A DNA stretch of 64,000 nucleotides from Escherichia coli (GTDB lineage: Bacteria; Pseudomonadota; Gammaproteobacteria; Enterobacterales; Enterobacteriaceae), in assembly GCF_044324875.1 (NCBI RefSeq), contig NZ_CP172185.1. One strand, 5' to 3'. Below are positions 44,082-53,391 of this stretch, in pieces (the first letter of the stretch is position 1; each line of letters starts with the position of its first letter). The translations under genes and the position numbers were made by a program. The notes under the pieces were generated by a model that worked only from the letters and a program-made list of their open reading frames with translations, searched no databases and was not told where the DNA came from.

Positions 44082-44157
44082 GCCCGGATAGCTCAGTCGG
44101 TAGAGCAGGGGATTGAAAATCCCCGTGTCCTTGGTTCGATTCCGAGTCCGGGCACCA
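44082..44157 (+). tRNA. pheU: tRNA-Phe (GAA)
   Basis: Exact 76-nt GCCCGGATAGCTCAGTCGGTAGAGCAGGGGATTGAAAATCCCCGTGTCCTTGGTTCGATTCCGAGTCCGGGCACCA. Confidence 0.97.
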
Positions 44158-44167
44158 AATTCATATA

Positions 44168-44196
44168 AACGGACCTCCACGGAGGTCCGTTTTTCG
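44168..44196 (+). terminator. pheU terminator hairpin
   Basis: CGGACCTCC-AC-GGAGGTCCG inverted repeat followed by TTTTTCGTTT directly after the tRNA. Confidence 0.7.
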
Positions 44197-44354
44197 TTTC
44201 AGGACGCCACGATTTAAGCGTCCTGCCGCCAAATCAATTCTACCGAACTCAACCAGACTCCCCCCACATCAACCCCATTGTGTGGGTATAATTGCGGGTA
44301 TACCCCAGTTCGACAGAATTTGTACCCTCTTTAACGCATTCAGAAGGCTGAACT

Positions 44355-45617
44355 ATGGCACTGACTGACGCAAAAATCCGGGCTGCAAAGCACACTGACA
44401 AGGCTTATAAACTCACTGACGGGGCTGGCATGTTCCTGCTGGTACATCCTAATGGTTCCCGTTACTGGCGTCTCCGTTATCGCATTCTGGGTAAGGAGAA
44501 AACTCTGGCACTTGGTGTATACCCGGAGGTTTCTCTCTCCGAAGCTCGTACAAAACGGGATGAGGCCCGAAAACTGATTTCGGAGGGGATTGACCCTTGC
44601 GAACAGAAAAGAGCTAAAAAAGTAGTCCCTGATTTACAACTCTCTTTTGAACATATTGCACGACGCTGGCATGCCAGTAATAAACAATGGGCACAATCAC
44701 ACAGCGATAAGGTACTCAAAAGCCTCGAAACACACGTTTTCCCCTTTATCGGCAACCGGAACATCACAACACTCAATACCCCGGACCTGCTTATCCCTGT
44801 TCGTGCTGCAGAAGCTAAACAAATTTATGAAATCGCCAGTCGTCTGCAGCAAAGAATATCTGCTGTAATGCGTTATGCCGTACAGTCTGGCATCATCAGA
44901 TATAATCCTGCTCTGGATATGGCTGGCGCATTGACCTCTGTAAAACGACAGCATCGCCCCGCTCTTGATCTTTCACGTCTGCCTGAACTTCTGTCGCGTA
45001 TTAACAGTTATAAAGGTCAGCCTGTCACCCGGCTTGCTGTTATGCTGAATTTACTGGTTTTTATTCGCTCCAGTGAACTCAGATATGCCCGCTGGGCTGA
45101 AATTGATATTGACAATTCAATGTGGACTATTCCAGCCGAACGCAAACCTCTGCCAGGGGTAAAATTCTCACACCGGGGCTCCAAGATGCGAACACCACAT
45201 CTTGTGCCACTCAGCAAACAGGCTGTAGCCATACTGACAGAACTTCAGACATGGGCTGGTGAAAATGGTCTGATCTTTACGGGAGCACATGACCCGCGTA
45301 AACCAATCAGTGAAAATACCGTAAATAAGGCCCTCAGAGTGATGGGGTATGACACAACCAAGGAAGTCTGTGGCCATGGATTCCGGGCGATGGCGTGCAG
45401 TGCATTGATTGAATCAGGTTTGTGGTCCCGCGATGCTGTGGAACGTCAGATGAGCCATCAGGAGCGTAATGGTGTACGTGCTGCGTATATCCATAAAGCA
45501 GAACATCTGGAAGAACGTCGACTGATGCTACAGTGGTGGGCAGATTTTCTGGATGCGAACAGAGATAAGGGTATCAGCCCGTTTGAATATGCAAAGATTA
45601 ACAATCCATTAAAATAG
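44355..45617 (+). CDS. P4-type tyrosine integrase
   Basis: 420-aa ORF; N-terminus MALTDAKIRAAKHTDKAYKLTDGAGMFLLVHPNGSRYWRLRYR (phage-integrase arm domain); C-terminus with HGFRAMACS and RAAYIH (R..H..R..Y catalytic signature); sits about 200 bp from the tRNA. Confidence 0.9.
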   Translation: MALTDAKIRAAKHTDKAYKLTDGAGMFLLVHPNGSRYWRLRYRILGKEKTLALGVYPEVSLSEARTKRDEARKLISEGIDPCEQKRAKKVVPDLQLSFEHIARRWHASNKQWAQSHSDKVLKSLETHVFPFIGNRNITTLNTPDLLIPVRAAEAKQIYEIASRLQQRISAVMRYAVQSGIIRYNPALDMAGALTSVKRQHRPALDLSRLPELLSRINSYKGQPVTRLAVMLNLLVFIRSSELRYARWAEIDIDNSMWTIPAERKPLPGVKFSHRGSKMRTPHLVPLSKQAVAILTELQTWAGENGLIFTGAHDPRKPISENTVNKALRVMGYDTTKEVCGHGFRAMACSALIESGLWSRDAVERQMSHQERNGVRAAYIHKAEHLEERRLMLQWWADFLDANRDKGISPFEYAKINNPLK

Positions 45618-45620
45618 TAA

Positions 45621-45650
45621 GCAGTCCGGGCTGATTGCCCGGACTGCTTT
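45621..45650 (+). terminator. Hairpin terminator after the integrase gene
   Basis: GCAGTCCGGG-CTGATTG-CCCGGACTGC stem-loop followed by TTTAACTGATTATTTTTC. Confidence 0.55.
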
Positions 45651-46068
45651 AACTGATTATTTTTCTTTGTAAATGATGACGAAGATTGATGTTCTGGCAA
45701 GTTACTCCGGCTTCCATTAAAGTCCCTTCGTCATGTTCTTCAGGCTATTTATGACTGTGATTAGCACCAGGAATATCTGGTTTCCATGAGAGCAGGTAAT
45801 AACCCCCGGTGTTTTCGGCTGTTCTGGTATCCTTGTCCAACGCAGGCAGTCATTATAAACGGTAAAAAATGTATTCACTGTTATGAAATCAATAGTCCTG
45901 ACGTACTGTTGAATGTGCTTGCGTTCTGAACCTTGTACAACCAGTACATTTGATACCGAATTATAAGCAAAACATTGCATCCAACTTTTTCAATATGGAC
46001 AATAGTTGTCCATATGGTGGTTTTATATTCGATAAATCAATGGATTTCATTGAGTCATAGGACTGGTA

Positions 46069-49000
46069 ATGGATGAAAATGCTTTAGGGTTTGCCTCATA
46101 CTGGCGCAACTCGCTTGCGGACGCTGAGTCAGGAAAGGGCAGTTTTGAACGGAAAGACGCCAAAAATTTCACTCACTGGCATGGGATAGCGGCGGGACGT
46201 CTTGACGAAGCGATTGTCAGTAAATTTTTTAAGGGAGAAAAAGACGATGTCGAAACGGTCGATGTCATCTTGCGCCCAAAAGTTTATTTCCGGTTACTGC
46301 AGCATGGTAAGGACCGTTCTGCAGGTGCGCCTGATATTGTTACCCCGATAGTGACGCCAGCCTTGCTAAGCCGTGAGGGTTTTTTATATCCGACGCCAGC
46401 GACCTCCATTCCCAGAGACCTGCTTGAACCTTTGCCAAAAGGAGCATTTTCGATTGGTGAGATTGGGCAGTATGACAAATACAAGACGACCCATACCACG
46501 TTCTCTATCAACTTTGATGACAGCGTTGATAAGACTGCCGAAACGGATGAAGAACGGGAAGAACGATATGCAGCCTTGCAGCAGGAGTGGCGTCAATATC
46601 TGGATGATTCAGAGAGGCTGCTGAAGAACGTTGCCGGCGACTGGATTAAAAATCCTGAGCAATATGAACTCGCTGAGCACGGTTATATTGTTAAAACGGC
46701 GCAATCTGGCGGTGCCAGTTTCCATATCCTTTCTCTTTATGATCACCTGCTTGTTTGCAATAAGGATGTGCCGCTCTTCAATCGATTCGCCTCGCGAGAG
46801 GTTCATGCTGCAGAGTCTTTGCTGGCCCCTGGAGCAAAATTCAGCGACAGGCTTGGACACTCCGGAGATAAGTTTCCGCTGGCAAAGGCTCAGCGCGATG
46901 CCTTAAGCCATTTTCTGGATGCTAAACATGGCGATATCCTTGCTGTTAATGGCCCTCCTGGAACCGGAAAAACCACGCTGGTGCTTTCTATCATCGCCAC
47001 GCAGTGGGCCAGAGCGGCTCTCGAAAAATCTGAGCCTCCGGTTATTATCGCGACTTCAACGAATAACCAGGCTGTAACGAACATTATTGAGGCATTCGGG
47101 AAAGACTTTTCGCAAGGTTCAGGTGCGATGGCCGGGCGATGGTTGCCAGAGCTGAAAAGCTTCGGCGCTTATTTTCCCTCAGGCAGCCGTAAAGCTGAAG
47201 CAGCCAAAAAATATCAAACTGAAGATTTCTTCAACCAGGTTGAGTCAAAAGAGTATGTAGAAGATGCACTGCTGTTTTATCTGGAAAAGGCTAAGGCAGC
47301 CTTTCCTGAAAAAGAGTGTTCATCCCCTGAAAAGGTCATTGAACTCCTGCATGGTCAGTTGGCAGCAAAATCCGAGCAACTGATAAGACTGAACGCAACA
47401 TGGCAAAAGTTAAGCCAGATTCGGGCTGCGCGTGAGCTTATTGCTAATGATATTGAGCAATATCTCAATAATTTAAATAAATTACTTTCCGGACAAGAAC
47501 AAAAAATCACTCTACTGAAGAGTGCTAAAACGGAATGGAAAAAATATCGCGCCGGTGAATCACTGATCTATTCATTATTTTCCTGGCTTCCGGCGGTTCG
47601 CAGTAAGCGACAGTACCAAATACAGCTGTTTCTCGAAGATAAATTAGGTGCGCTGATTGCAGGAAATCAATGGTCTGATCCTGAAACTATCGAACGTAAT
47701 ATTGATGGGCTGCTCAATTCCGCTGAGCGCGAGCAAACAACATACCGGCAGCAGATTGACTCCGCCCATGAAATCATTCTTAAAGAACAGCAGGCGGTTC
47801 AGGAGTGGCAGAGACTGGCTCTTGATTTAGGGTATGAGGGCGACGAGGAACTGAGCTTCTCACAGGCCGATGAACTGGCTGATACGCAGATTCGCTTCCC
47901 TGCATTTTTACTGACGACTCACTACTGGGAAGGTCGTTGGCTGATGGATATGGCCAGCATTGATGATCTGCAGGAAGAGAAGAAGAAAAAAGGCGCTAAA
48001 GGGGTAACCGCCCGTTGGCAACGTCGAATGAAACTCACTCCATGTGTGGTGATGACATGCTATATGCTGCCCGGCAATATGCAGATAAGTGAGCACAAAG
48101 GACAGCGTAAATTCGAGAAAAGTTATTTGTATGATTTTGCCGATTTACTCATTGTCGATGAAGCCGGGCAGGTGCTTCCTGAAGTGGCTGCTGCCTCGTT
48201 TGCATTAGCTAAGAAGGCATTAGTGATTGGCGATACGGAGCAGATCCCGCCAATATGGAGTATTGCTCCTGCGATTGATATCGGTAACATGCTGGCGGAA
48301 AAAATTCTGTCTGGCAGTACGCAAGAAGAGATTACCGAGAAATATACGGCAATCGCAGACCTTGGTAAAAGTGCCGCATCTGGCAGCGTTATGAAAATAG
48401 CGCAGTTTGCTTCGCGCTATCAATATGATCCCGAACTGGCTCGTGGTATGTACCTATATGAACACCGCCGGTGCTACGACAATATTATTGGATACTGTAA
48501 TACGCTCTGCTATCACGGTAAGTTGTTGCCTAAAAGAGGGCGTGAAGAGAGCAATTTAATGCCCGCAATGGGGTATCTCCATATTGATGGTAAAGGAGAG
48601 CTGGCAAGTAGTGGAAGTCGATATAATTTGCTTGAGGCTGAAACGATAGCGGTCTGGTTGGCAGAGAACCAGCAAAATATTGAAGCGCATTACGGTAAAT
48701 CGCTTCATGAAGTTGTCGGTATTGTGACGCCTTTTAGCGCTCAGGTATCCACTATCAAACAGGTGCTGGGCAAACAAGGTATCAGTACAGGCACGAATGA
48801 AAAGTCGCTCACAGTGGGCACCGTGCACTCTCTTCAGGGAGCGGAAAGAGCGATTGTGATATTCTCGCCAGTCTATTCAAAACATGAAGACGGCGGGTTT
48901 ATTGATAGCGATAACAGCATGCTGAATGTTGCAGTCTCCCGTGCGAAGGACAGTTTTCTGGTCTTCGGCGATATGGACCTGTTTGAGGTCCAGCCAGCCT

Positions 49001-49584
49001 CATCGCCACGGGGATTACTGGCAAAATACCTCTTTGAGTCAGAGAAGAATGCGCTCTCTTTTGATTATAAAGAGCGTAAGGATTTAAAAACCGCCGGGAC
49101 CAAAATCTACACACTTCATGGTGTGGAGCAACATGATAATTTCCTGAATCAGACATTTGAAAATACCAGTAAACACATCACGATAGTTTCTCCATGGCTG
49201 ACCTGGCAAAGGCTGGAGCAAACCGGTTTTCTTGATTCCATGATTGCGGCGTGTTCACGTGGAATTAACGTCACGATAGTCACTGACAGAAGCTACAACA
49301 CTGAACATAATGATTTTGAGAAGCGAAAAGAGAAGCAGCAGAACTTTAAAGCGGCGCTGGAGAAACTGAATGCGCTGGGTATTGCTACAAAGCTGGTAAA
49401 CCGTGTTCATAGCAAAATTGTTATTGGTGATGATGGTTTGCTGTGCGTGGGATCGTTCAACTGGTTTAGTGCGACACGGGAAGCGCGATATGAACGATAC
49501 GATACATCAATGGTTTATTGCGGTGATAACCTGAAGGGTGAGATTGAGGCTATTTATAATAGTCTTGAGAGGCGGCAGGTTTAG
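46069..49584 (+). CDS. Upf1-like SF1 helicase fused to a C-terminal PLD-family (single HKD) nuclease domain; candidate anti-phage defence protein with Mokosh type II-like architecture
   Basis: 1171-aa ORF. Walker [10 protein letters not shown] (aa 295-303, nt 46951-46977); Walker [10 protein letters not shown] (nt 48145-48171); helicase motifs [19 protein letters not shown] and [16 protein letters not shown] (nt 48814-48972); C-terminal HSKIVIGDD...GSFNW = H-x-K-x4-D...GSxN (nt 49408-49464). Located beside the island integrase. Confidence 0.8.
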
Positions 49585-49692: not shown

Positions 49693-51192
49693 TTATCTTC
49701 TGCCCGGAAGAATCAGAGGCTGTGGTTTCAGACTGTCTGCCGGTACATTCCTGTCTCCGTTAAAAACAATAACGGGTTCATTATCTTCGTCTGTCAGCGG
49801 ATTGAATGGCGGTATATTTTCAGTACGAATGCCGGTCAGCCACTGAAAAATACCTGCGAAATGACGGGCACTGATTTTTCTGCTGACGGACTGATGAGAC
49901 GTGATGTCACTGGCGGTAATAATCAGGGGAACGCTGTAGCCTCCTTGTATATGGCCATCATGATGAACAGGATTAGCACTGTCGCTGACCGACAGACCAT
50001 GGTCAGAAAAGTAAAGCATGGCAAAATGACGGGAGTGCCGGCGAAGGATACCATCAAGCTGACCGAGAAAGTTATCCAGTTTACTGATGCTGGCGAGGTA
50101 ACAGGCAATCTTTCGGGGATACTGCTCCAGGTAATGATTCGGCCAGGAGTTAAGTCGGTCACACGGATTCGGATGAGAGCCAATCATGTGCAGGAATATC
50201 ACCTTCGGAGAGGATTTATCCGCCAGTGCACGTTCTGTTTCCTGTAACAACAACATGTCATCCGTTTTACGGGAAGCAAAGCTGCCTTTCTTGAGGAAAA
50301 CGGTATGCTCCGCATCAGAAGCAATAACAGAGATGCGTGTATCATGCTCCCCCAGTTTTCCCTGATTGGATATCCACCATGTGCTGTATCCTGCTTTTGC
50401 TGCCAGCGCCACCACGTTGTTGCCGGAGTCAGGGTTCTGCTCATAGTCATAAATCAGTGTCCGGCTCAGGGAAGGTACGGTACTGGCTGCTGCCGATGTA
50501 TAGCCGTCAATAAATAAACCGGGAGCCGTATTCAGCCATGGTGTGGTTGGCACGGGATAGCCATATACCGACATATAATCCCTGCGCACACTCTCACCAG
50601 TAACGATAACAATCGTGTCATACAACGGTGTTCCCGGCAGGATTTTCCAGTTGTCAGCCCCGTGCTGACTCAGTTGTTTATAACGCTGCATTTCACGCAA
50701 TGTGTCAGTTGTTCCCACAACAATTCCTTTAACCATCCGCAACGGCCAGCTGTTTACAGAGCATAATACGAACAGCAGCAGTGCCAGCCAGTTACGGTGA
50801 CCGCGGTGGTGTGTCCGCCAGAAAATCACCATGAATACCAGAATCGCGGCACTGACCAGAAAATGATAAACAGGAATCATCCCGGTAAACTCTGCAGCCT
50901 CATCAGCCGTGGTCTGCAGCAACGCGACAATAAAACTGTTGTTGATTTTACCGTACGTCATACCCGCAGGCGCATACAGTGCACAACAGAACAGAAATAA
51001 CAGCGTTGTAATGGATGTGAGGGTATTTCTGTGTGCAAGGAGCAGAAGGAGAAACAGAAGCAGCACATTTCCTGTGGCATTCTTCTCAGTGTATCCGCAT
51101 GCAATTGTGGTTATCACAGAAATAACAAAAAAGAATAAAAACAATAAAATCCGGGGTGTGTCGCCCGGACAAAACAGTTTTCTGATATTCAT
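49693..51192 (-). CDS. Sulfatase-family inner-membrane protein (phosphoethanolamine-transferase-like)
   Basis: 499-aa ORF; N-terminal ~130 aa strongly hydrophobic (multiple TM helices), C-terminal domain with VTGESVRRDY and HMIGSHPNP motifs resembling EptA/OpgE/LtaS-type transferases. Confidence 0.7.
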   Translation of the reverse strand: MNIRKLFCPGDTPRILLFLFFFVISVITTIACGYTEKNATGNVLLLFLLLLLAHRNTLTSITTLLFLFCCALYAPAGMTYGKINNSFIVALLQTTADEAAEFTGMIPVYHFLVSAAILVFMVIFWRTHHRGHRNWLALLLFVLCSVNSWPLRMVKGIVVGTTDTLREMQRYKQLSQHGADNWKILPGTPLYDTIVIVTGESVRRDYMSVYGYPVPTTPWLNTAPGLFIDGYTSAAASTVPSLSRTLIYDYEQNPDSGNNVVALAAKAGYSTWWISNQGKLGEHDTRISVIASDAEHTVFLKKGSFASRKTDDMLLLQETERALADKSSPKVIFLHMIGSHPNPCDRLNSWPNHYLEQYPRKIACYLASISKLDNFLGQLDGILRRHSRHFAMLYFSDHGLSVSDSANPVHHDGHIQGGYSVPLIITASDITSHQSVSRKISARHFAGIFQWLTGIRTENIPPFNPLTDEDNEPVIVFNGDRNVPADSLKPQPLILPGRR

Positions 51193-51373
51193 CGGAGTAT
51201 ATCGACAACATTATTATGAAGAGAACAGGATAATAAAAATCAGAAATTATCTGTAAAACAGATAACAGACAACCCTGCAGCAATAGACTGCAGGGTGTTT
51301 CTGTTTAATTGCAGAAGATATACAATTATATTAATTACAGAATATTCGTGATTATCTCTCGGGAACAGTGTTG

Positions 51374-52114
51374 TCAGAAGTTATAAGTCACACCAAGCAT
51401 GATGTCATGACTTTTAACATCAACTTCTGACTTATATTTATCGCCCCACTCGTCCTTGTAACTCACACTGCTGTCACCTGCATCAAGATAGCGATAGCTG
51501 AGGTCCAGAGCGATATCCGGGGTTACGTCATAGCGGACACCCGCGCCAAGGTTCCATGCGAAGTTGTCAGCAGAGCCTGAACGTGACAACGATTCGCGAC
51601 CACTGCTTCCGTACTCATAATCCCAGGTACTGATACCGGTTGTTTTCTGGTGAATTCTGGCGTAGCCAATCCCTGCAGATATCCAAGGTGTGAATGCGCT
51701 GTCATTCCGGAAGTCATAGTACGCATTCAGCATTAGTGTGTTGACTGACACCTCATTCTTCAGGTCATCACGCCAGTAACCACCTGACCAACTGTCTTTA
51801 TCTACGTTATACTTCGAATCAGCTTTTCCACGAGCGTAAAACTCCAGTTCTGTACGAACCGGAATACTGAACTGCGGATAAAAATCATAACCAGCCGCGA
51901 TACCACCACTGAATACCGTATCATGGTCATCGCCGCCTTTATACTTTGACGTTTCTTCCTCATCTCCTGACAGGAAACGCTGGTCTGAAAGTGACACCAC
52001 AGAGGTACCGGCTTTACCGGTCAGATAAAAACCGCTTTTACCTTCCTCAGCACCTGCATTTGCTGCAAATACACAGGCTGCGGCCACCACTGAAACAGCA
52101 AAAACCTTTTTCAT
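51374..52114 (-). CDS. Outer-membrane beta-barrel protein (Opa/Ail/OmpA-like)
   Basis: 246-aa ORF with signal peptide MKKVFAVSVVAAACVFAANAGA, alternating amphipathic strands rich in Y/G/D, and C-terminal ...GVTYNF (terminal Phe typical of OM beta-barrels). Confidence 0.7.
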   Translation of the reverse strand: MKKVFAVSVVAAACVFAANAGAEEGKSGFYLTGKAGTSVVSLSDQRFLSGDEEETSKYKGGDDHDTVFSGGIAAGYDFYPQFSIPVRTELEFYARGKADSKYNVDKDSWSGGYWRDDLKNEVSVNTLMLNAYYDFRNDSAFTPWISAGIGYARIHQKTTGISTWDYEYGSSGRESLSRSGSADNFAWNLGAGVRYDVTPDIALDLSYRYLDAGDSSVSYKDEWGDKYKSEVDVKSHDIMLGVTYNF

Positions 52115-52601: not shown

Positions 52602-52960
52602 TTATGCCGCTTCTTTTTCTGGATTCAGATAAACTGCCTGAATGAGTTCCCAGTCACGCAACTGTTTGCTCCAGCGCTCAGGATGACGCTTGCGAGCTTC
52701 GCGATAAACTTTTTTTCTGGCTTCCAGTATTTGTGCATCAATTCCGCGATGGCGTTCATCCGGAGTAACATACTTAATACCGCTGTGCTTGTGTTCCAGG
52801 TTGTACCATTACGTGAACTTGCTTAACCAACTTCTGGCTTCATCTATGGTTCGAAAACCATTCTCCGGCCACCATGAACAATACTTAATCGTCCGGAAGA
52901 GCGATTCGGAATAAAGAAGTGTTACTGGCAGTTCTTTCATCGCATCAGTGAAAACCAGCA
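52602..52960 (-). pseudogene. Transposase C-terminal remnant (DDE integrase-core type, IS3-like), interrupted by a stop codon
   Basis: Minus-strand translation ...SLFRTIKY...WPENGFRTIDEARSWLSKFT*WYNLEHKHSGIKYVTPDERHRGIDAQILEARKKVYREARKRHPERWS...; no N-terminal part present. Confidence 0.5.
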
Positions 52961-52969
52961 GGGCACTGC

Positions 52970-53391
52970 TCACCAGAGCAACACAGGAAAGTGAACCCGA
53001 ACAAAAGTTCCTGTACCATTTTCTCCCAGCAGACGTGAGGCTTGTTCCAGTGACGCTGGTATACGTCCCAGCCGGACATCAAGTGCGCCGATGGCTATTG
53101 CCTGAAATCGCATCGTACAGCAAATCACCAACAGGACACCGACAGACATTAAAGGTAACCCCCTGTAATCCAGTAGTTCCGCCAGCCAGCGGTCATTTAG
53201 GGAGTCAGAAAACCAATCGCCAGAATCGTGCCCGGAAAGGCATAACCCAGCGACGCCCCTCTCATCACACCGCGCCTGAACAGTGGCATAGCGTTGAGGA
53301 ATTCCGGGCATTCCAGACTACGAGCAGACTGACAAAAATTACGACAAAGCGTTGAAGGAAGCCAGCGCGCGGACTGACAGGACTTTACCAT
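52970..53391 (-). pseudogene. ABC-transporter permease remnant (frameshifted fragments)
   Basis: Two overlapping minus-strand ORFs with permease-type motifs (...AMPLFRRGVMRGASLGYAFPGTILAIGFL...; ...LEQASRLLGENGTGTFVRVHFPVLLW); no intact gene. Confidence 0.4.

Follow-up and report, generated by a model that had tools for sequence, protein, structure and literature searches.

The stretch of DNA considered here is a 64,000-nucleotide window of the Escherichia coli contig NZ_CP172185.1 (assembly GCF_044324875.1), in which a preliminary description had flagged some 390 residues between the two ATP-binding motifs of a helicase as an insertion rich in coiled coil. An open reading frame (ORF) scan found a single long ORF over the flagged interval, at 46069..49584 (+), encoding 1171 amino acids (aa); no competing ORF of at least 80 aa was present on either strand between 46906 and 48556. 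Its product, identified below as the anti-phage protein MkoC, carries a Walker A motif (motif I; GPPGTGKT, aa 295–302, 46951..46974) that is nearly invariant in 110 homologs, and a Walker B motif (motif II; VDEAGQ, aa 696–701, 48154..48171) that aligns with DEAAQ of SETX and DECAQ of IGHMBP2. The flagged interval, 46978–48144, corresponds to aa 304–692 and holds both of the peptides quoted in the preliminary description; at 389 residues, the gap had been placed exactly. All features of the gene given below lie on the plus strand.

Comparison with the PADLOC profiles shows the ORF product to be, almost certainly, MkoC, a helicase-nuclease that by itself makes up the single-gene anti-phage system Mokosh type II: profile PDLC03924 matches at E = 0 (1694 bits), with aa 1–1169 aligned to positions 1–1135 of 1136. 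[quoted passage not shown] Beyond the full-length profile match, we found here a Upf1-like, COG1112-type SF1 helicase with intact ATP-binding motifs and, at the C-terminus of the same polypeptide, a PLD nuclease with an HKD motif. Pfam matches comprise AAA_11 (aa 272–492, profile positions 3–176), AAA_12, and PLDc_2, and the C-terminal nuclease domain also matches MkoB and DrmC in PADLOC. A scan for the pattern H.K....D returned a sole HKD motif, HSKIVIGD (aa 1114–1121, 49408–49431), in which H1114 and K1116 are nearly invariant and D1121 is invariant or nearly so.

The protein is identical (100%) to RefSeq WP_021572001.1, and a search of 5426 complete E. coli genomes matched mkoC in 888 of them. 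Its computed mass of 131.5 kDa agrees with the 132 kDa of purified E. coli Mokosh II (EcMokosh II), which is a monomer by mass photometry and defends against single-stranded DNA phage only (bioRxiv 10.1101/2025.07.10.664194). At the protein level, no difference from type II Mokosh MkoC was seen; the present protein is a plain member of that family, encoded in an islet with a tRNA gene and an integrase gene. Phage defense, known from family members and EcMokosh II, would by analogy be ascribed to the present allele as well.

A full-length AlphaFold2 (AF2) model, made from a 66-sequence alignment, reached a pLDDT (predicted local distance difference test) score of 93.1 and a predicted template modeling (pTM) score of 0.88. 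A sequence search of the PDB returned no MkoC-like chain, and only Upf1-like cores matched. The nearest structural neighbors of the model in Foldseek were SETX, UPF1, IGHMBP2, Aquarius, Sen1, DNA2, and ZNFX1, with E of about 1e-17 for UPF1, SETX, and IGHMBP2, in agreement with the initial suggestion of a Upf1/DNA2-like enzyme. Both Pfam and Foldseek recognize two RecA domains. In the model, the N-terminal region (aa 1–270, 46069..46878) contains beta strands at aa 63–108 and a long helix at aa 160–193; lying upstream of Walker A, it is probably where Upf1-like helicases carry domain 1B and the stalk, the 1B-like beta region being visible only as strands in the AF2 model. RecA2 (aa ~741–1000, 48289..49068; AAA_12 at aa 777–969) aligns with the UPF1, SETX, and DNA2 chains, and the PLD-family nuclease domain follows at aa ~1001–1171 (49069..49581; PLDc_2 at aa 1028–1138).

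Not all of the 389 residues between the motifs are inserted. With conservation computed over the 110 homologs, and identity taken as identity to the query, aa 304–345 proved to be RecA1 core (a helix, a strand, and motif Ia, TNNQAV), and aa 656–692 to be the RecA1 strands (LTPCVVMT) that lead into Walker B; what stands of the preliminary claim is an insertion of about 310 aa. Entering it from the N-terminal side, the RecA1 strand 326–330, motif Ia, and helix 333–345 (aa 326–345, 47044..47103) show an identity of 0.73, and motif Ia aligns with its counterpart in IGHMBP2, APSNIAVDNL. A moderately conserved proximal base follows (aa 346–419, 47104..47325; GRWLP, YQT, and short helices at 372–411), in which R357 and W358 are invariant or nearly so. 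The AF2 model then places an outgoing strand at aa 420–495 (47326..47553; helices 420–458 and 462–495, broken at 459–461), an apex at aa 496–521 (47554..47631), and a returning strand at aa 522–596 (47632..47856; the end of helix 508–530, a break at 531–537, helix 538–586, and a loop). The distal base (aa 597–655, 47857..48033) consists of strongly conserved helices carrying D605, R609, THYWEGRW (618–624), and RWxRRM (649–654): R609 and E621 are invariant, D605, H618, Y619, W620, and W624 are nearly invariant, and identity over aa 601–620 is 0.53. The return into RecA1 (aa 656–692, 48034..48144; AF2 strands 659–663, 672–676, 682–686, and 691–696) again contains invariant (P658, T663) and nearly invariant (C659) residues.

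Between the two bases, identity is as low as 0.07–0.15 over much of aa 420–596, rising to 0.24–0.29 at its start and around the apex, and indels are frequent. The length of this arm ranges from about 50 to 280 residues across homologs. Within it, the apex is an island of conservation with an isoelectric point of 9.7; the motif E-[PS]-x4-L-[FL]-x-[FW]-[LI]-P-x-[VI]-[KR]3-4...F occurs in 77 of the 110 homologs, and the 11 residues past the Pro contain on average 3.9 K/R against 0.9 D/E. A Pfam scan of the insertion alone matched no family, the only hit being JCAD at E = 0.067.

We consider this segment probably to be an intramolecular coiled-coil arm of the MkoC lineage, located at the site of helicase domain 1C, that is, a module of about 310 residues set into RecA1 after motif Ia and ahead of the strand preceding Walker B. 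In the AF2 model, aa 372–654 are wholly helical, and the helices comprise 39 (420–458), 34 (462–495), 23 (508–530), 49 (538–586), and 34 (597–630) residues. When aa 366–660 were excised and modeled on their own alignment, the helices of the full-length model were recovered at a pLDDT of 95.2; the same fold in isolation fits a self-contained module. Scored crudely for heptads from the single sequence, the region rose barely above shuffled sequences, and only at aa 445–474. Family-averaged hydrophobicity gave periods of 3.48 residues for helix 420–458, 3.46 for 462–495, and 3.50 for 538–586, with p ≤ 0.001 against position shuffles for these three long helices (p < 0.0005 for 538–586). Control helices in MkoC mostly peaked at 3.58–3.81, one short control (H1083–1102) also lying at 3.50. 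Hydrophobic occupancy of the a and d positions was 0.64–0.74 versus 0.28–0.38 elsewhere (0.31–0.38 in the outgoing strand). Long helices with a 3.5-residue a/d repeat, as in a coiled coil, are those of 39, 34, and 49 residues; no heptad pattern was found in helices 508–530 and 597–630. The heptad character initially ascribed to the whole region is therefore present in the three long helices and confined to part of it.

A Foldseek search with the insertion returned nothing at E ≤ 0.001, and its neighbors were exclusively antiparallel coiled coils of a generic kind (Rad50, SMC, prefoldin). No helicase 1B or 1C domain was among these neighbors. The preliminary description had named as its own refutation an alignment with an ordinary 1B/1C sub-domain lacking coiled-coil propensity; with coiled coils and no 1B/1C domain as neighbors, and heptads present, that test fails. 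An ordinary, somewhat enlarged 1B/1C sub-domain without coiled-coil character is, in our view, highly improbable. It would fit the position of the insertion at the 1C site, the partial coverage of the insertion by AAA_11 (aa 272–492), and the general architecture of SF1B helicases, which carry accessory domains 1B and 1C inside RecA1 (PMC12305709). The reading is already contradicted, however, by the lack of a Pfam match to the insertion alone, by the all-alpha fold, by helices of 34–49 residues with heptad periodicity, and by size, about 310 aa separating motif Ia from the pre-Walker B strand where the whole corresponding span of IGHMBP2 is about 120 aa.

A further question is whether the protein might be an SMC/Rad50-like ATPase, in which Walker A and Walker B, here about 394 aa apart, would be separated by a coiled-coil hairpin. 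We regard this as extremely improbable: fold and sequence matches alike are to an SF1B helicase with two RecA domains and with the helicase motifs from Ia and II onwards; what follows Walker B is another RecA domain (AAA_12), with no half carrying the ABC signature and D-loop; and the SMC and Rad50 matches cover only their coiled coils. When SMC and ABC ATPase families were tried as candidates, none was significant; the ABC_tran match was limited to the P-loop (E = 0.0077), and its 17 bits fell short of the cut-off of 25.

The coiled-coil arm itself, at aa ~420–596, is quite likely to be a two-stranded antiparallel hairpin formed within one chain, with its apex at aa 497–521. Superposition of the insertion on the human Rad50 hairpin (5gox_B) aligned 160 residues at 4.0 Å, and superposition on the Pyrococcus furiosus Rad50 rod aligned 116 residues at 3.5 Å; an alignment of 160 residues is possible only with about 80 residues per strand lying side by side. 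Two segments of such length, aa 420–495 (76 residues) and aa 508–586 (79 residues), flank the conserved island at aa 497–521. Moreover, the lengths before and after the apex motif covary across the 110 homologs (Pearson 0.78; Spearman 0.46, p = 5e-7), with outgoing/returning pairs spanning 25/28 to 134/146, which is the signature expected of a hairpin with matching strands. On this model, each strand would measure ~75–80 residues, and the arm, roughly 110 Å long, would project from a conserved base lining the nucleic-acid path on RecA1. The stalk envisaged in the preliminary description is thus supported by a high-confidence, all-helical prediction, by long helices with heptad periodicity, and by antiparallel coiled-coil rods as neighbors; the coiled-coil and structure predictions that it had proposed as a check gave a period of 3.46–3.50, a helical course over aa 372–654, and pLDDT values of 93–95.

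Several points weigh against this interpretation. Helix 508–530 gave no heptad signal, and the Pearson coefficient of strand lengths is driven in part by a few very short or long arms. The extended hairpin, the arm length, and the apex contacts are approached indirectly, and a shorter four-helix bundle of about 55–60 Å is still conceivable, strictly speaking, as an alternative geometry. Finally, the proposed equivalence to 1C draws on the order of the motifs and on the known domain boundaries of UPF1.

The long helices of the arm have only two breaks, at aa 459–461 (47443–47451) and aa 531–537 (47659–47679), which lie ~37 and ~25–30 residues from the apex on the two strands. The two breaks would thus face each other about equally far from the apex, and the hairpin may have a joint, or elbow, there.

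To place the spacing of the motifs in context, we relied on a search of 1.84 billion cluster representatives, in which 1141 proteins matched at E < 1e-30. Among the best 150 of these 1141 representatives (clusters at 50% identity), both motifs were found in 132, and the Walker A-to-B spacing had a median of 403 aa (5–95% range, 358–475; full range, 248–517), compared with 394 aa in the present MkoC. This is the comparison across homologs that the preliminary description had called for. The segment equivalent to aa 366–660 is mostly 285–310 aa long in homologs, and reading frame and length are retained in seven E. coli alleles. Judged from sequence, the long spacing is a hallmark of the family and not a peculiarity of this gene or allele. 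Upf1-like enzymes do carry an insertion at the same position, as had been supposed, but that of MkoC is far longer: the spacing is ~160 aa in IGHMBP2 and ~230 aa in SETX. Once the arm is deleted, the MkoC core and RecD align colinearly. In the type I MkoA profile PDLC03920, only ~145–156 positions separate Walker A from Walker B, as estimated from profile coordinates (MkoC aa 692 falls at position 793, and aa 299 of the relative P0110, with its Walker A at aa 326, falls at position 615). With long spacing in MkoC homologs and short spacing in the MkoA profile, the arm is a trait of the MkoC lineage, not one shared by Mokosh helicases generally.

Some relatives lack the PLD domain. Close relatives of about 990 aa, or with a C-terminal DUF5710 in place of the nuclease, retain the long Walker A-to-B spacing; since they keep the arm, the arm is not tied to the PLD domain. 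These PLD-less or DUF5710 proteins include P0029, P0036, P0045, and P0110, and the locus L008 5001–7973 belongs with them; P0029 comes after a GGDEF gene, with no PLD gene evident nearby. Distant plasmid helicases from Klebsiella (L009 3496–6849), Bacillus cereus (L010 4045–6861), and Nostoc (L011 3979–6846) match the MkoC profile across the insertion with 220–264 bits, have spacings of ~470, ~280, and ~395 aa, respectively, and contain no HKD motif. In a BLASTP comparison of MkoC with the Klebsiella protein, the cores aligned and the arms did not. The Nostoc helicase adjoins two protein-kinase genes, reminiscent of the kinase of type I MkoA.

Defense proteins often bear variable sensor regions, and the low conservation of the arm could be read in this light: the arm would be a rapidly changing surface, shaped by an arms race, that either detects some phage protein or acts as a decoy and escapes phage inhibitors. 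Indeed, few parts of the protein are conserved less across the family than aa 441–600 (identity 0.07–0.29, with many indels), and arm length varies over the range given above. We nevertheless hold this explanation to be very unlikely. Across the seven E. coli alleles (95.9–100% nucleotide identity), the ratio of nonsynonymous to synonymous substitution rates (dN/dS) was 0.11 for the whole insertion and 0.18 for the arm, near the 0.155 of the gene and below the 0.25 of the N-terminal region. The density of variable residues was likewise lower in the arm (0.079) than in the N-terminal region (0.089) or the PLD domain (0.129). An arm dN/dS of 0.18 indicates purifying selection in E. coli, and hence neither junk nor an arms-race hot spot; low conservation with kept heptads is the normal behavior of a coiled coil. 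Diversifying selection on the arm was rejected on the same dN/dS values.

What might such an arm do? In Nuc, Zucchini, and similar nucleases of the PLD family, the active site is put together by a dimer that brings two HKD motifs to it, and a single-HKD nuclease such as that of MkoC should accordingly require a second copy for its active site. With one HKD motif per chain and a monomeric protein, some regulated step of pairing, dimerization, or activation is to be expected. Since the apo protein is monomeric, the constitutive oligomerization arm entertained in the preliminary description is unlikely, and the arm would not be a constitutive oligomerization device. We put forward, tentatively and with more doubt than confidence, a coupling mechanism in which the arm links helicase engagement to licensing of the nuclease. 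The conserved base would lie along the path of the nucleic acid and do there what a 1C domain does at the front of a translocase moving 5'-3'; the rigid arm would transmit or gate; and the basic/aromatic tip would contact nucleic acid or the effector (nuclease) domain. Substrate engagement and ATP-driven movement of RecA1 could in this way be coupled to licensing of the C-terminal PLD nuclease. A precedent for coupling to an effector comes from CnuH, a UPF1-like helicase of the CoCoNuT systems, whose insertion is placed against the effector in AF2-multimer models and is predicted to dock its winged helix-turn-helix (wHTH) domain (PMC11090510). Two considerations count against the coupling proposal: the functional step is drawn purely by analogy with the 1C domain of Upf1, the prong of Sen1, and CnuH, and the monomeric state seen by mass photometry pertains to the apo protein only.

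In an unlikely alternative, the arm is a conditional oligomerization device: on substrate, the hairpin, probably by way of its conserved apex, would pair two MkoC molecules in the manner of a Rad50 hook or SMC hinge and so join two single-HKD PLD domains. Such an arrangement would account for the single HKD motif per chain in a family whose nucleases normally have two, for a conserved hydrophobic and basic apex at the end of a variable arm, and for the presence of Rad50 and SMC arms among the structural neighbors; regulation through remodeling of a dimer has also been described for DruE (bioRxiv 10.64898/2026.05.13.724313). On the other side, EcMokosh II is monomeric in solution by mass photometry, contact between PLD domains alone could dimerize the protein, and retention of the arm by PLD-less relatives implies that it does not serve the PLD domain solely. 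The positions outside a and d, moreover, are not enriched in hydrophobic residues (0.28–0.38), which fits a self-contained two-stranded coil.

A broader version, which we think quite unlikely, would make the apex a substrate-triggered element by which, on phage nucleic acid, arms pair two monomers or a single arm clamps a strand onto the PLD domain. If this were true, a two-HKD site would be assembled only on the target, under a Rad50-hook-like licensing switch located in RecA1. To our knowledge, such a switch in RecA1 of an SF1B helicase is undescribed for any helicase.

The gene resides in a minimal islet (44082–49584) that comes after dsbD and dicD/yjdC and consists of, in order, tRNA-Phe, a tyrosine integrase gene, and mkoC. 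The tRNA-Phe (GAA) gene at 44082..44157 (+), detected by ARAGORN and annotated by RefSeq in an identical locus, is the insertion site, and the integrase ORF lies at 44355..45617 (+; RefSeq 'tyrosine-type recombinase/integrase'). G+C content over 44–52 kb is 46–47% versus 52–55% in the neighboring intervals. The 3' end of tRNA-Phe was not found a second time in the window, so the right border of the islet is undefined. A perfect 10+10 bp palindrome, ATATGGACAA-TAG-TTGTCCATAT, lies at 45993–46015, ~55 bp upstream of the mkoC start codon, and could be an operator for a regulator of mkoC, a candidate proposed from the sequence. Directly past the integrase stop codon, at 45619–45649, is a 13-bp perfect stem-loop, AAGCAGTCCGGGC/GCCCGGACTGCTT, reported on the minus strand in a terminator scan.

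Downstream of mkoC, two minus-strand genes occupy 49693–52114; one encodes a 499-aa phosphoethanolamine transferase, the other a 246-aa protein of the outer membrane. Past these, at ~52948–53355, is a fragment of an iron ABC transporter permease, which RefSeq labels as frameshifted and partial. In some E. coli genomes (matches H1, H9, H12, H17, and H38), two places match mkoC. The CFT073 copy spans only the first 50% of the gene and is therefore truncated.

Among known elements, the closest in position are the 1C domain of UPF1, the 'prong' of Sen1/SETX, and the 1C domain of IGHMBP2, all accessory elements in RecA1 at the same site in the order of motifs. In UPF1 and IGHMBP2, domain 1B precedes Walker A, and 1C comes later, after motif Ia but before motif II; 1C domains range from tens of residues to about 100. 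The MkoC module, with ~310 residues and a long coiled-coil hairpin, is several times larger, and no structural similarity to any solved 1C was detectable, so that it does not qualify as a canonical 1C domain or prong. Its likeness to SMC and Rad50 is confined to the coiled coils, and no ABC-type ATPase was found.

Type I MkoA has a related helicase core, its profiles matching MkoC at aa 692–974 with 109–123 bits, and its consensus, judged from profile coordinates, appears to be without the long arm. MkoA also differs in carrying a Ser/Thr kinase domain and using a separate PLD protein, MkoB (bioRxiv 10.1101/2022.05.11.491447). DruE of Druantia type III resembles MkoC in combining a helicase with a PLD-type nuclease that is licensed by substrate-dependent remodeling; it differs in not being a Upf1-like SF1B enzyme, in forming a dimer in the apo state, and in requiring the partner DruH (bioRxiv 10.64898/2026.05.13.724313). 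An equivalent of the arm is not known from DruE. Mokosh itself is common, and it has been named as a possible relative, among prokaryotes, of the MOV10L1/Zucchini piRNA machinery.

In the literature, the feature that comes closest in kind is described for CnuH in type II/III CoCoNuT, a UPF1-like helicase in which Walker A is followed by a large insertion, helical and partly coiled coil, and which is partnered with nuclease effectors, including PLD domains (PMC11090510); the two insertions are compared here by description only. CnuH works with a separate CnuE and the McrBC-like CnuBC and carries SmpB-like or RNase-toxin-like N-terminal domains, whereas MkoC is a stand-alone PLD fusion, and no McrBC-like or wHTH-effector genes were found among the neighbors of mkoC that would assign it to CoCoNuT. 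The gene is thus a member of a catalogued defense family, and a feature of this kind is already known from CnuH. In searches of the accessible literature, the MkoC arm itself was nowhere described (neither the anatomy of its hairpin nor the apex motif nor its absence from the MkoA profile), and no paper paired Mokosh with a coiled coil; the word 'coiled' is absent from the preprint that models EcMokosh II (bioRxiv 10.1101/2025.07.10.664194). Nor did the literature and PDB searched contain a mechanism or an experimental structure for Mokosh.

The odd spacing of the ATP-binding motifs is accordingly a genuine, conserved feature of a catalogued defense gene whose RefSeq label is still 'AAA domain-containing protein'. 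Any role of the arm in MkoC is proposed by analogy with the systems above; with its conserved tip, the arm offers an obvious way into the question of how a monomer that has only one half of a PLD active site becomes active. Amounting to about a quarter of the helicase, the arm sets the MkoC lineage apart from MkoA and from the eukaryotic Upf1-like enzymes.

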